Both the position numbers and the translations under genes were made by a program. Source: a virus (taxonomy: Duplodnaviria; Heunggongvirae; Uroviricota; Caudoviricetes). Taken from it: a stretch of 4,958 bases of DNA. Positions 165 through 4,958 of this stretch are shown in pieces. The DNA is taken from the IMG/VR virus record IMGVR_UViG_2713896737_000025; one strand, 5' to 3'. Position 1 is the stretch's first letter. Each line of letters starts with the position of its first letter. Below the pieces are notes generated by a model. That model saw nothing but the letters and a program-made list of their open reading frames with translations, was not told the DNA's origin and ran no database searches.

Positions 165-463
165 CGGGCAAAGAGGCAATTATTCATTACCTGGGGACGC
201 ATAAGAGCTTCTGTGCACAGGACGTTGCCGCGGTAACAGGTGCAACCGTAACCAGCATAAATCAGGCTGCGGCTAAAATGGCGCGGGCAGGAATCCTGGT
301 CGTTGATGGTAAGGTCTGGCGAACGGTGTATTACCGGTTCGCTACCAGAGAAGAACGGGAAGGAAAGGTGAGCACGAATCTGATTTTTAAGGAGTGTCGC
401 CAGAGTGCCGCGATGAAACGGGTATTGAGGGTATATAAAAGAACATCAATGGGTACACAATGA
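161..463 (+). CDS. ren: Ren (Rex-exclusion resistance protein of lambdoid phages)
   Basis: 100-aa ORF beginning MTGKEAIIHYLGTH...VTSINQAAAKMARAG...VYYRFATREEREGK, near-identical in my memory to lambda Ren (96 aa). Sits directly after P as in lambda; start is coupled to the P stop. Confidence 0.85.
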   Translation: MTGKEAIIHYLGTHKSFCAQDVAAVTGATVTSINQAAAKMARAGILVVDGKVWRTVYYRFATREEREGKVSTNLIFKECRQSAAMKRVLRVYKRTSMGTQ

Positions 464-480
464 TGAAACAGGTGAGTTGA

Positions 481-515
481 GTTCAAACTGTAGTACAATT
501 CTCTCCAGTTTGAAC
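481..515 (+). promoter_or_regulatory. Perfect 10-bp inverted repeat (GTTCAAACTG / CAGTTTGAAC) with a 15-nt spacer, between ren and emrE
   Basis: Read directly: 481-490 is the exact reverse complement of 506-515. No U-tract follows, so it is not a classic intrinsic terminator. Lies at the left edge of the AT-rich cassette; candidate operator, RNA stem-loop or recombination site. Confidence 0.4.
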
Positions 516-530
516 AGGAAAGAATATGTT

Positions 531-863
531 ATGAACCCTTATATTTATCTTGGTGGTGCAATACTTGCAGAGGTCATTGGTACAACCTTAATGAAGTTTT
601 CAGAAGGTTTTACACGGTTATGGCCATCTGTTGGTACAATTATTTGTTATTGTGCATCATTCTGGTTATTAGCTCAGACGCTGGCTTATATTCCTACAGG
701 GATTGCTTATGCTATCTGGTCAGGAGTCGGTATTGTCCTGATTAGCTTACTATCATGGGGGTTTTTCGGCCAACGGCTGGACCTGCCAGCCGTTATAGGC
801 ATGATGTTGATTTGTGCCGGTGTGTTGGTTATTAATTTATTGTCACGAAGCACACCACATTAA
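531..863 (+). CDS. emrE: EmrE, small multidrug resistance (SMR) family efflux transporter
   Basis: 110-aa product MNPYIYLGGAILAEVIGTTLMKFSEGFTRLWPSVGTIICYCASFWLLAQT... is essentially the E. coli EmrE sequence, with the conserved membrane Glu in the first helix (AILAEVIGT). AGGAAA Shine-Dalgarno upstream of ATG 531. The ORF-track start at 477 is an upstream in-frame extension with no ribosome-binding site. Confidence 0.95.
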   Translation: MNPYIYLGGAILAEVIGTTLMKFSEGFTRLWPSVGTIICYCASFWLLAQTLAYIPTGIAYAIWSGVGIVLISLLSWGFFGQRLDLPAVIGMMLICAGVLVINLLSRSTPH

Positions 864-893
864 AAATAATTTCTTTTAAAAGACTGCAATATG

Positions 894-926
894 GCGGTTC
901 ATATCTTTACATGGGCCGCTTTTGTT
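894..926 (+). terminator. Candidate rho-independent terminator downstream of emrE
   Basis: GCGGTTCAT (894-902) can pair with ATGGGCCGC (911-919), including two G-U wobbles, around an 8-nt loop, followed by TTTTGTT (920-926). Begins about 30 nt after the emrE stop. Confidence 0.45.
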
Positions 927-1107
927 AATGTTTTTAGTTTTTGTGTATTCTTTTGTGCCTTCAAGATTATTGCGTAAGCAAATTGCAATACGATTATTGT
1001 TGTATATTCAAGATAGTGTGATCGTAATTGTCTTTTTAAATAAAAATTAAACAAAAATTATATCTCACCACTAAGGTTTATAAAAGCATAAGTTAGCAGG
1101 TGTCACC

Positions 1108-2634
1108 ATGAAAAAAGCCATAGCATATATGCGATTTTCATCACCAGGTCAGATGTCTGGCGACTCATTAAACCGACAGAGAAGACTTATTGCTGAATGG
1201 TTAAAGGTAAATAGTGATTATTATCTTGATACCATAACATATGAAGATTTAGGATTAAGTGCATTCAAAGGAAAGCATGCACAATCAGGAGCTTTTTCGG
1301 AATTTTTAGATGCTATAGAGCATGGTTATATATTGCCAGGAACTACATTGTTAGTTGAAAGTCTGGACAGACTTTCAAGAGAAAAAGTCGGTGAAGCGAT
1401 TGAACGTCTGAAATTGATTTTGAATCACGGTATTGATGTTATAACTCTTTGCGACAATACAGTCTATAATATTGACTCTTTGAATGAGCCATATTCATTA
1501 ATAAAAGCCATACTTATAGCACAAAGGGCAAATGAAGAAAGCGAGATAAAGTCAAGTCGGGTTAAATTATCATGGAAGAAAAAACGGCAGGATGCACTGG
1601 AATCAGGTACGATTATGACGGCGTCTTGTCCGAGATGGCTCTCCTTAGATGACAAAAGAACGGCTTTTGTTCCAGACCCCGACAGGGTGAAAACTATTGA
1701 GCTAATTTTTAAACTCAGGATGGAAAGGCGCTCATTGAATGCAATAGCCAAGTATTTAAATGATCATGCTGTAAAGAATTTCTCAGGAAAAGAAAGTGCA
1801 TGGGGGCCTTCTGTAATTGAAAAATTATTAGCGAATAAAGCTCTGATAGGTATATGCGTACCTTCATATCGTGCAAGAGGGAAAGGGATAAGTGAAATCG
1901 CTGGCTATTATCCCAGAGTCATATCAGATGATTTGTTTTACGCTGTACAGGAAATTCGGTTGGCACCTTTTGGTATTAGCAATAGTAGCAAGAATCCTAT
2001 GCTAATAAATCTACTTCGAACAGTTATGAAGTGTGAGGCTTGTGGTAATACCATGATTGTTCATGCGGTATCTGGAAGTTTGCATGGCTATTATGTTTGT
2101 CCGATGAGAAGATTACATCGATGTGACAGGCCATCAATAAAGAGAGATTTGGTTGATTATAATATCATTAATGAATTGCTTTTTAATTGTAGCAAAATTC
2201 AACCAGTTGAAAACAAGAAAGATGCTAATGAAACTTTAGAGTTAAAAATTATTGAGCTTCAGATGAAAATTAATAATTTAATCGTTGCATTGTCTGTCGC
2301 GCCTGAAGTTACCGCTATAGCAGAGAAAATAAGACTATTAGATAAGGAATTACGAAGAGCTTTGGTATCATTGAAAACTTTGAAGAGTAAAGGTGTAAAT
2401 TCATTCAGTGATTTTTATGCTATTGACTTAACCAGTAAAAATGGACGAGAGTTATGCCGTACACTTGCCTATAAAATATTCGAAAAAATCATAATTAATA
2501 CGGATAATAAAACCTGTGATATCTATTTTATGAATGGCATTGTTTTTAAACACTATCCTTTAATGAAAGTAATATCCGCCCAGCAGGCGATAAGTGCTCT
2601 CAAATATATGGTTGATGGTGAGGTTTATTTTTGA
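1108..2634 (+). CDS. ybcK: Large serine recombinase (resolvase/invertase-type catalytic domain, recombinase domain, zinc ribbon, coiled coil); YbcK-like
   Basis: 508-aa ORF with AGGTG Shine-Dalgarno 5 nt upstream. N-terminus AIAYMRFSSPGQ matches the serine-recombinase YxRVSTxxQ motif (nucleophile at Ser11); SLDRLSR at residues 85-91 matches the conserved DRLxR; Cys-x2-Cys-x18-Cys-x7-Cys zinc ribbon at residues 309-339; predicted coiled coil around 374-428. Length and N-terminus match K-12 YbcK as I remember it. Strongly AT-rich codon usage. Confidence 0.9.
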   Translation: MKKAIAYMRFSSPGQMSGDSLNRQRRLIAEWLKVNSDYYLDTITYEDLGLSAFKGKHAQSGAFSEFLDAIEHGYILPGTTLLVESLDRLSREKVGEAIERLKLILNHGIDVITLCDNTVYNIDSLNEPYSLIKAILIAQRANEESEIKSSRVKLSWKKKRQDALESGTIMTASCPRWLSLDDKRTAFVPDPDRVKTIELIFKLRMERRSLNAIAKYLNDHAVKNFSGKESAWGPSVIEKLLANKALIGICVPSYRARGKGISEIAGYYPRVISDDLFYAVQEIRLAPFGISNSSKNPMLINLLRTVMKCEACGNTMIVHAVSGSLHGYYVCPMRRLHRCDRPSIKRDLVDYNIINELLFNCSKIQPVENKKDANETLELKIIELQMKINNLIVALSVAPEVTAIAEKIRLLDKELRRALVSLKTLKSKGVNSFSDFYAIDLTSKNGRELCRTLAYKIFEKIIINTDNKTCDIYFMNGIVFKHYPLMKVISAQQAISALKYMVDGEVYF

Positions 2635-2753
2635 GTAATAATCACTTTTTCAACCGTGCTATGGTATGAAAGTAAAGTAACTACTATGATATTAACTATC
2701 GAGCAAGAATATCCCCAGGCACTCAACAGGGCGCAGGTCAACGTGAATCGGTC

Positions 2754-2945
2754 ATGACACGACACCGATTTTGCGGAATCAATGTTGCTTATGAATACAA
2801 CATCCCGCTTAGTACATGTTCAACACATCAGCAAATTTTGAACTGGGTGTGGCACTTAACTGAAAAAACATGGATGACACAAAATGTTACTCGTCGCTTC
2901 ATTGAAGTAGCTTGTGGATATCACAAGCTAGACTATCGCCAATGA
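2754..2945 (+). CDS. Hypothetical small protein (63 aa), doubtful
   Basis: ORF from the track; I recognise no motif in MTRHRFCGINVAYEYNIPLSTCSTHQQ..., see no convincing Shine-Dalgarno, and the start codon lies in the loop of a short hairpin. Possibly a remnant of what occupies the ybcL/ybcM position in K-12. Confidence 0.2.
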   Translation: MTRHRFCGINVAYEYNIPLSTCSTHQQILNWVWHLTEKTWMTQNVTRRFIEVACGYHKLDYRQ

Positions 2946-2987
2946 TATTCAATTTTTGATTTTTTAGTATCAACCTTCCATAATAAT

Positions 2988-3016
2988 GTCACCGGAGCTT
3001 GAACAACTCCGGTGAC
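2988..3016 (+). other. Perfect 10-bp GC-rich stem-loop (GTCACCGGAG / CTCCGGTGAC, 9-nt loop)
   Basis: Read directly from the sequence. Followed by TTCTGCGCATTT, only weakly U-rich, so a weak terminator or a regulatory/processing hairpin just upstream of ylcH. Confidence 0.4.
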
Positions 3017-3040: not shown

Positions 3041-3139
3041 ATGCGACCACAATCTGAACTCCTTACCTTGTCACAGATGCAGAAATGCACCTGCGATGTC
3101 TTGCATCCAGCGTTTGATCTCTGCGGAGGTGAAGCGTGA
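3041..3139 (+). CDS. ylcH: Small protein YlcH-like (32 aa)
   Basis: ATG 3041 is preceded by AAGGGGA; translation is [32 protein letters not shown]. Its TGA stop (3137-3139) overlaps the ybcN GTG start (GTGA). Size and position immediately upstream of ybcN match the small ylcH gene of K-12 DLP12, from memory. Confidence 0.5.
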
Positions 3140-3591
3140 ACCTCCCACAAGATGGCATCAAATTACATCGCGGTAACTTCACCGCTGTCGGTCAGCAGAT
3201 CCAGACTTATCTGGAAGACGGCAAATGCTTTCGCATGGTGCTTAAACCGTGGCGCGAGAGACGCAGTCTTTCCCAGAATGCACTCAGCCACATGTGGTAC
3301 AGCGAAATCAGTGAATACCTCATCAGCAGGGGGAAATCGTTCGCTACTTCAGCATGGGTAAAAGATGCTCTCAAACACACATACCTCGGTTATGAAACCA
3401 AGGACCTGGTTGATGTCGTAACCGGCGAAATCACTACTATCCAGTCGTTACGCCATACCTCCGATCTTGGTACCGGAGAGATGTATGTCTTCCTGTGTAA
3501 GGTTGAAGCCTGGGCGATGAATATTGGCTGCCACCTGACTATTCCACAGAGCTGCGAGTTCCAGCTGCTGCGTGACAAGCAGGAGGCGTAA
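3136..3591 (+). CDS. ybcN: YbcN, NinB/Orf-family recombination protein (DNA base-flipping protein in K-12)
   Basis: 151-aa ORF with GTG start and GGAGGTG Shine-Dalgarno. The [17 protein letters not shown] motif resembles the lambda NinB/Orf RSLDQN region; matches K-12 YbcN as I recall it. Confidence 0.9.

Positions 3592-4044: not shown

Positions 4045-4958
<914 letters not shown>

Follow-up and report, generated by a model that had tools for sequence, protein, structure and literature searches.

We analyzed a 4,958-bp stretch of viral DNA (IMG/VR record IMGVR_UViG_2713896737_000025; the whole stretch is called the window, and positions are counted from its first nucleotide) that carries ybcK, the gene of a predicted large serine recombinase (LSR). 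The window comes from a lambdoid prophage of the Escherichia coli O157/DLP12 type and corresponds to its early-right region; the open reading frames (ORFs) and Pfam matches of the window gave the gene order P, ren, emrE, ybcK, ybcN, ninE, ybcO, and rusA. ybcK occupies positions 1108–2634 on the plus strand, begins with ATG, and encodes 508 amino acids. It is an already annotated prophage gene of E. coli K-12, and both the gene and its domain architecture have been published, including the three domains of YbcK and its resemblance to SpoIVCA (CisA) (PMC6637259). A preliminary description of the window had presented ybcK as an apparently intact, orphan LSR gene; this observation is correct and restates the known annotation, and no unusual mechanism is indicated. 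YbcK is predicted to be a catalytically competent LSR that is accessory cargo of lambdoid phages and not their integration enzyme.

YbcK is predicted to be an intact large serine recombinase

Translation, domain searches, and structure modeling describe YbcK as an intact LSR with a complete set of predicted catalytic residues and domains. The three Pfam models that the preliminary description had proposed for a search all matched above their curated cutoffs, giving an N-terminal catalytic (resolvase) domain (residues 4–161, positions 1117–1590; PF00239 Resolvase, E 5e-19), a Recombinase DNA-binding domain (RD; residues 191–284, positions 1678–1959; PF07508, E 2e-14), and a zinc-ribbon domain (residues 302–357, positions 2011–2178; PF13408 Zn_ribbon_recom, E 8e-8). 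In the AlphaFold model, helices 373–397 and 402–427 form a coiled-coil hairpin (residues 373–427, positions 2224–2388). Like the gene, all four features lie on the plus strand. The motif YMRFSSPGQ spans residues 7–15, with the codon of the nucleophile Ser11 at 1138–1140, and SLDRLSR spans residues 85–91. The catalytic set comprises Arg9, Ser11, Asp87, Arg88, and Arg91, and the zinc ligands are Cys309, Cys312, Cys331, and Cys339. The motifs, the four-cysteine zinc ribbon, and the coiled coil to which the preliminary description had pointed are all present in the translation, the Pfam matches, and the model.

In a family alignment of 43 sequences (29–97% identity), D87, R88, R91, Q15, C309, C312, C331, and C339 were invariant. 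Y7, R9, and S11 were conserved in at least 90% of the sequences, and the only sequence seen without them, P0029, is cut short at its N terminus. Loss of catalytic residues, which the preliminary description had named as evidence against an intact enzyme, was not seen in this alignment. The AlphaFold model was built from the same family alignment (mean predicted local distance difference test score, 81.7), and it recovered a full-length serine-integrase fold along with the coiled-coil hairpin. Foldseek matched the model over its full length to the integrases of SPbeta (9dxd), PhiC31, and Bxb1, with the best E value of 3e-18 for SPbeta. A family profile searched against the PDB sequences matched the C-terminal domains of the A118/LI integrase (4kis, E 9e-16), and this match takes in the RD, the coiled coil, and the terminal beta-strands. 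The single NCBIfam match, XisF, was far under its cutoff (46.9 bits versus 375), no defense model of PADLOC-DB matched at E 0.01 or better, and Pfam gave no DUF4368 or other extra domain.

ybcK is widespread and under strong purifying selection

Of 5,426 complete E. coli genomes, 1,423 (26%) have ybcK at 97–100% identity, and 1,397 hold at least 80% of the gene. In a sample of 40 rows spaced evenly through the genome matches, 39 had a full-length ybcK annotated as a recombinase family protein. YbcK is also encoded, at 97.8–99.6% protein identity, by 12 sequenced genomes of lambdoid phages, among them Perceval, 4A7, Turner, and PhiR70_1. The two main alleles, those of the window and of Perceval, differ at 50 nucleotides and 11 amino acids. 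The rates of nonsynonymous (dN, 0.009) and synonymous (dS, 0.130) substitution between them give a dN/dS of 0.07, which points to strong purifying selection on ybcK. Together with the residues kept in the 43 aligned sequences, this ratio argues for the intact architecture that the preliminary description had proposed and not for a decayed gene.

These numbers bear on the idea that YbcK has no function, being the leftover integrase of an old recombination between phages that has not decayed and is carried along with emrE. Such a relic would explain why no att site is recognizable, and it is consistent with the K-12 copy, which lies in a defective prophage and is transcriptionally silenced: the K-12 ybcK leader has a Rho/NusG-dependent terminator, and mutations in rho and nusG derepress ybcK (PMC4150792). 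Deletion of ybcK was also without effect in the one excision assay that included it, that of the H47 island (PMC5426353). We nevertheless consider a relic very unlikely. The dN/dS of ∼0.07 holds across alleles that differ at 13% of their synonymous sites, nearly all copies in ∼1,400 genomes and in the 12 sequenced phage genomes are full length, the catalytic residues and zinc ligands do not vary even at 29% identity, and a length of 505–522 amino acids is kept across genera. The option of a remnant integrase, raised in the preliminary description, thereby falls into two parts: descent from an integrase is the best fit to the phylogeny, and a functionless relic is opposed by selection. Elsewhere, a polyphosphate-dependent binding of Hfq to ybcK DNA has been reported (PMC10954037).

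ybcK is part of a separable cargo unit between ren and ninB

The closest match to the window was E. coli O157 strain AR-0428, with 99.9% identity. Its prophage adjoins icd and encodes a tyrosine integrase and an excisionase at the icd end, and comparison with this genome places ybcK ∼4 kb from the prophage end, between ren/emrE and ninB. With the tyrosine integrase and excisionase present at the icd junction, ybcK is not the integrase of its host prophage, in agreement with the earlier remark that the gene lies in mid-prophage beside emrE and away from the position of a phage integrase. The G+C content is ∼50% in the flanks of the window and drops to 31–42% across roughly 430–3000, which marks emrE, ybcK, and a small ORF as compositionally foreign to the phage backbone.

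Comparing phages with common flanks identified the gap between ren and ninB (window ∼427–2980) as a cargo hotspot of lambdoid phages. Homology of the left flank stops at ∼427, inside the 3' end of ren, and homology of the right flank starts again at 2954–2980 in all phages compared. The gap holds Rha and small ORFs in PhiR5_1, an acyltransferase and a lipoprotein in PhiR30_1, and the known defense gene PD-lambda-1 in PhiR26_1; further contents are an alpha/beta hydrolase and ybcL-ybcM. To the left of ybcK, the window carries the emrE unit (454–871, plus strand; coding sequence at 531–863; Pfam SMR) as a separable neighboring cargo. About 2,300 E. coli genomes have this unit without ybcK in a CFT073-type arrangement, where it is 91.6% identical to window positions 454–871 and adjoins ybcL-ybcM, and the homology of the window to such ybcK-less loci stops at 871. 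In CFT073 itself, the emrE unit lies next to fliE and is directly followed by ybcL-ybcM, and 63 bp there stand in for 2,139 bp of the DLP12-type arrangement. The stretch from fliE through emrE, ybcL, and ybcM to a porin gene (CFT073 locus L021, 6001–8154) is a fixed remnant in the ∼2,300 genomes, namely, a decayed DLP12-like nin region without ybcK that is 90–92% identical to the phage copies.

We surveyed breakpoints in 80 IMG/VR loci and 4 phage loci with ybcK and found conservation from ren through ybcK. Downstream of ybcK, the DLP12 type loses conservation at 2643 and continues with ybcL-ybcM; all other types stay conserved up to 2700, beyond which they have cargo sets of differing lengths, at least six in number. 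Strain Rb-50 has the arrangement of Perceval-type phages with emrE fused straight to the alpha/beta-hydrolase gene; relative to Rb-50, Perceval has an extra 2,073 bp holding ylcJ, ybcK, and a truncated ORF. From the breakpoints in the 84 loci and the comparisons with CFT073 and Rb-50, we infer a ybcK unit that extends from ∼872 to 2643 or 2700. This ylcJ-ybcK unit of ∼1.8 kb is separable both from emrE and from the downstream cargo. It comprises a leader (872–1107, plus strand), the gene, and a 3' flank that the breakpoints among carriers show to be carried along with it (2635–2700, plus strand). In the leader, a terminator scan placed the intrinsic terminator of emrE at 893–920, and the small ORF ylcJ, whose product has been reported as a small protein (PMC6001520), follows at 928–1050 (both plus strand). 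The ∼130 bp directly 5' of the ybcK ATG were highly conserved in an alignment of four alleles.

The remaining features of the window lie outside this unit. Positions 2701–2953 (plus strand) are variable cargo of window-type loci, present in 9 of ∼85 ybcK-bearing loci and absent from most ybcK carriers. The cargo contains an ORF of 63 amino acids (2754–2945, plus strand; phrog_2559, function not assigned) and appears to have arisen from a Turner-type arrangement when ∼230 bp were deleted at a CTATC microhomology (2696–2700). At the right edge of the slot, just 5' of ybcN, a terminator-like scan detected a hairpin with a perfect 12-bp stem (2988–3016), which may serve this phage type as the terminator of its nin region. 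The emrE unit is preceded by the 3' end of P (15–164) and by ren (161–463), and the NinB-like gene ybcN is at 3136–3591. After approximately codon 115, rusA is cut at ∼4386 by an element of the IS3 family of insertion sequences (4386–4958, minus strand; IS1203/IS629-like) with rve integrase-core domains; in the closest genome, an element of that family was found between ybcK and ybcN and not in rusA. An Rfam scan of the window gave no RNA family.

Close relatives of YbcK occupy different slots in phages and plasmids

A database search identified full-length relatives of 505–522 amino acids with 40–61% identity to YbcK in Atlantibacter, Yersinia, Erwinia, Ewingella, Kluyvera, Citrobacter, and Pantoea. 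We viewed the homologs with 10-kb flanks, which placed the far ends of the tail-end prophages outside the view, and found four kinds of context. Two Atlantibacter-type loci have the homolog in an equivalent of the nin region, in the order O, P ... homolog, KGG, DinI, DUF1367, NinG, and Q, and a Pantoea dispersa prophage carries a 42% identical homolog in the same kind of region together with its own tyrosine integrase. In five prophages with three tail types, the homolog is the last large gene 3' of the tail-fiber and fiber-assembly genes, beside host genes at the prophage end. In a third context, that of SOS cargo, it adjoins umuC or dinI. The fourth comprises Erwiniaceae megaplasmids and a Citrobacter conjugative region, where the surroundings hold no phage genes.

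In seven cases, two related genes from differing contexts have only the gene and no more than 0.4 kb on either side in common. In a neighbor-joining tree, the contexts switch between close relatives: an Atlantibacter tail-end copy clusters with nin copies from the same genus, and a plasmid copy from Duffyella clusters with Yersinia tail-end copies. Members of the YbcK subclade (41–61% identity) thus appear, as judged from gene contexts and phylogeny, to be solitary and mobile as single genes among phage slots and plasmids. As a separate observation, homologs often stand beside genes of SOS type, including dinI, umuC, a gene for a UmuD-like peptidase, and, on a plasmid, psiB/ssb. In one locus (L016), a 200-bp segment from the 5' part of the DUF1367 gene is duplicated (9652–9851 and 12633–12831; 86% identical), flanking a 3-kb block with the YbcK homolog, the KGG gene, and dinI, a sign of cassette exchange by recombination. 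The same locus, a metagenomic lambdoid prophage with a 60% identical homolog, also encodes a 646-amino-acid protein with a SIR2_2 domain at 5755–7695, which is likely a defense gene.

The slots in which ybcK and its relatives occur raise the possibility that YbcK has been co-opted in conflicts between mobile elements, damaging or rearranging rival phages or plasmids or excluding superinfection. Family members recur in the nin region and at the tail-fiber end, the two classic places for accessory genes in temperate phages, the ren-ninB slot of PhiR26_1 houses PD-lambda-1, and a SIR2-like protein is encoded in the region of the 60% homolog. Small serine recombinases of cryptic prophages have also recently been tied to phage resistance (PMC12529663). 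Direct support is absent, there being no PADLOC model match for YbcK and no anti-phage phenotype in the literature that we searched. The terminators that precede ybcK and its reported silencing in lysogens are the opposite of what is expected for a constitutive prophage defense gene. YbcK moreover keeps every catalytic and synapsis feature of a true integrase, which indicates no change of function, and we consider a role in defense to be improbable.

Sister-clade proteins are terminal integrases

Proteins of a sister clade, 37–45% identical to YbcK, are integrases whose genes lie at the ends of integrated elements. In E. coli FDAARGOS_944 and a Shigella flexneri strain, a degenerate prophage of ∼15 kb splits mdtG (locus L187, 20162–35356, in FDAARGOS_944). 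Its first gene encodes an LSR of 509 amino acids with 37% full-length identity to YbcK. The ATG of this gene is 40 bp away from the left junction, and the element contains no tyrosine integrase. Reconstruction against intact mdtG gave an attB that contains GTCTTCAG directly followed by CATTAC, and an attP with the imperfect inverted arms GTGTATTTAGGGAAC and GTTCCTAAACAC; attB and attP have the common core TCAG. A second group, with 39% identity to YbcK, was present in Mixta, Serratia, Leclercia, and Rahnella, whose element DNA is 92–96% identical. When Mixta is compared with the other three genera, the common DNA begins ∼78 bp 5' of the LSR ATG. A small serine recombinase repeatedly accompanies the LSR of this clade, either 0.6–3 kb 3' of it or at the opposite end of the element, as at the right end of the FDAARGOS_944 element. 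These small recombinases are 62–65% identical to each other in four of five loci and 33% identical in the fifth (L120).

Possible self-mobility of the ylcJ-ybcK unit

The ylcJ-ybcK unit could be a self-mobile one-gene element that YbcK inserts and excises just 3' of the emrE stop codon, with analogous sites in other phages and plasmids, the right end being lost in the window and the element stranded there. The best case for this comes from phages of the Perceval type. Their 2,073-bp insert is bounded by a perfect 15-bp direct repeat, CATTAAAAATAATTT, over the emrE stop codon, and a sibling prophage in Rb-50 lacks exactly that insert. The repeat regions are at 5737–5774 and 7810–7847 in Perceval (locus L001), with the Rb-50 counterpart at 4296–4333 (locus L189). 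Two E. coli genomes have the Perceval arrangement minus the ybcK insert; the sequence expected of the empty site is CCACATTAAAAATAATTTCTTTTGAATCG. Comparison of the DLP12 type with CFT073 gives an identical left junction point and a degenerate repeat on the right. Also in keeping with self-mobility, related genes in differing contexts have only the gene and short flanks in common, and their left boundaries often lie 40–80 bp 5' of the ATG, which is the position of the att crossover in the sister-clade integrases.

The right copy of the Perceval repeat does not hold up as an att site. It is preceded by homology to an ORF that is intact in Turner and truncated in Perceval, and the truncated ORF is followed by the apparent last few codons of a second emrE. 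The right copy is most plausibly an emrE 3'-end remnant joined to a truncated ORF, and the simplest reading is ordinary unequal or illegitimate recombination between two emrE phages. This copy is present in only 12 of 86 loci. Other observations also speak against self-mobility. The right ends of the DLP12 and Perceval types differ even though the proteins are 97–99% identical, and the presumed left arm (874–900) is the least conserved part of the leader in the four-allele alignment. Flanking repeats never exceeded shuffled controls in any family member examined. ybcK lies downstream of emrE in all ∼90 E. coli loci and phages inspected, and the genome counts of the two genes are nearly equal (1,397 for ybcK and 1,399 for emrE). 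The predicted circle junction, GGTCACGCCCCCATTAAAAATAATTT joined to ATTTTTAAACGACT, was absent from IMG/VR and the 5,426 E. coli genomes, assemblies being a weak test for circles. Evidence for the self-mobilizing option of the preliminary description is thus weak and ambiguous. We regard a self-mobile unit as unlikely. A comparison of filled and empty sites on Erwiniaceae plasmids met with mosaicism too great to define an element, and we found no ylcJ-like small ORF 5' of the homologs in other genera.

Search for YbcK sites

The preliminary description had proposed two candidate YbcK sites, at 481–515 and 2810–2846, with similar GTTCAA...TTGAAC words. The first is an inverted repeat with 13-nt arms (92% complementary) located 16 bp 5' of the emrE start. 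It had no Rfam family match and is kept with one mismatch in the CFT073 locus, which lacks ybcK. Being conserved wherever emrE occurs, it probably serves the emrE leader as a regulatory or structural element, and we rejected it as a YbcK site. The second candidate was rejected as well; it lies inside the 2701–2953 cargo and is restricted to window-type loci. With this distribution, neither can be a conserved YbcK substrate. The GTTCAA hexamer is not enriched in the window, where it occurs 6 times versus 3.3 ± 1.75 expected; a count of 6 was reached in 24 of 200 shuffles.

These candidates had also suggested that YbcK inverts the cassette, flipping emrE-ybcK or the downstream cargo between inverted sites in the manner of Pin, Gin, or Hin. 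The homologs that lie 3' of tail-fiber and assembly genes are in the position of Gin, Cin, and Pin in other phages, which would suit an invertase. ren, emrE, ybcK, and ninB are, however, in one orientation in all 84 loci aligned, with no inverted isoform of the cassette among them, and the two candidate sites are not a conserved pair. Near the homologs, neither inverted duplicates of fiber or assembly genes nor significant inverted repeats were found, and the idea of a tail-fiber invertase was dropped for them. YbcK also has the DNA-binding domains and coiled coil of an LSR and not the short helix-turn-helix tail of an invertase. Inversion is, in our judgment, the most improbable of the functions considered for YbcK and can be set aside.

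We also compared the 120 bp upstream with the 2.5 kb downstream in 15 family loci, with shuffled controls. No direct or inverted repeat exceeded the controls. The best inverted pair in the window, 1040–1067 with 2943–2970 (71% complementary), was no better than shuffled sequence. When the 165 bp preceding and the 240 bp following the homologs were aligned, no conserved noncoding motif emerged, with the exception of ∼68 bp common to two Atlantibacter-type copies.

A possible auxiliary integration or excision function

We tentatively favor, at somewhat less than an even chance, the reading that YbcK belongs to a stranded integrase lineage, kept because it still recombines particular sites outside the window, and acts in trans as an auxiliary integration or excision enzyme for the phage or a partner element. 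Like other LSRs, YbcK dimers would bind two DNA sites of ∼40–50 bp, and the coiled coil would pair the two bound sites. Ser11 would then cut all four strands with 2-bp staggers, and half of the complex would rotate by 180 degrees before the strands are rejoined. In a lysogen, ybcK would be shut off by the emrE terminator and by the Rho-dependent terminator in its leader, the latter published for K-12. Transcription of ybcK would therefore start at pR and take place along with that of the delayed-early genes, when N antitermination overrides both terminators.

Several points weigh against this auxiliary function. The repeat search across the 15 family loci yielded no att site, and neither the 5,426 genomes nor IMG/VR contained a recombination product of ybcK. 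The literature that we searched reports no substrate or recombinase activity for YbcK. The proposed lytic expression is drawn from gene order and from terminator data published for a defective prophage. Finally, the only phenotype reported is a tolerance of BL21(DE3) to sabinene that increases on overexpression of ybcK and decreases on its deletion, for which no mechanism was proposed (PMC7181518) and which an auxiliary integrase does not explain.

A broader possibility is that the YbcK subclade (41–61% identity, Enterobacterales) has left the lifestyle of one integrase per element and now consists of gene-sized units that insert on their own into accessory slots of phages and plasmids, or of trans-acting weapons or tools that such elements keep against other mobile DNA. 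We consider this distinctly unlikely; if true, either version would represent a way of life that has yet to be described among serine integrases.

Comparison of YbcK with known recombinases

ybcK is one of the few genes for site-specific recombinases in E. coli K-12 without a known substrate. Its sites, if found, would add a serine integrase derived from Gram-negative bacteria to the genome-engineering toolbox and would explain the strong selection for a second, different recombinase in phages that use a tyrosine integrase. The attB/attP pair reconstructed at mdtG could be used, together with the protein WP_038339359.1, as a positive control for the YbcK clade.

With the small invertases PinE, PinQ, and PinR, YbcK shares serine-recombinase chemistry and a prophage location, and its homologs are often in the post-tail-fiber position typical of this group. 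The Pin proteins, however, have ∼190 amino acids, a C-terminal helix-turn-helix, and an adjacent invertible segment, whereas YbcK, at 508 amino acids, combines recombinase, zinc-ribbon, and coiled-coil domains and lacks an invertible segment. TnpX (Tn4451) and TndX (Tn5397) are LSRs that move a small element via a circular intermediate and are the model for a self-mobile unit. They often have DUF4368 and use several insertion sites; YbcK lacks DUF4368, no conserved ends were found for its unit, and in the E. coli loci inspected ybcK is at a single position, 3' of emrE. SpoIVCA (CisA), with which YbcK was paired in PMC6637259, and XisF are LSRs with the same three Pfam domains as YbcK. Each of them removes a defined element from the host gene that it interrupts, and no such gene or element is associated with ybcK.

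The integrases SprA of SPbeta, A118/LI Int, PhiC31 Int, and Bxb1 Int have the domain order of YbcK (catalytic, recombinase, and zinc ribbon with an inserted coiled coil) and its catalytic residues, at an identity of only 14–20%. Each adjoins attP and is the sole integrase of its phage. YbcK differs from these SPbeta-type enzymes in being nin-region cargo of phages that use a tyrosine integrase, and the search for its att sites was negative. The mdtG-type integrases and those of Mixta, Serratia, Leclercia, and Rahnella belong to the LSR clade of YbcK, are 37–45% identical over their full length, and have equal length and motifs. In these, the LSR gene is the first gene of the element, 40–80 bp from the junction, and attB and attP can be reconstructed for the mdtG type. 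By contrast, YbcK and its relatives with at least 41% identity are internal to phages and plasmids or solitary in the 10-kb flanks viewed.

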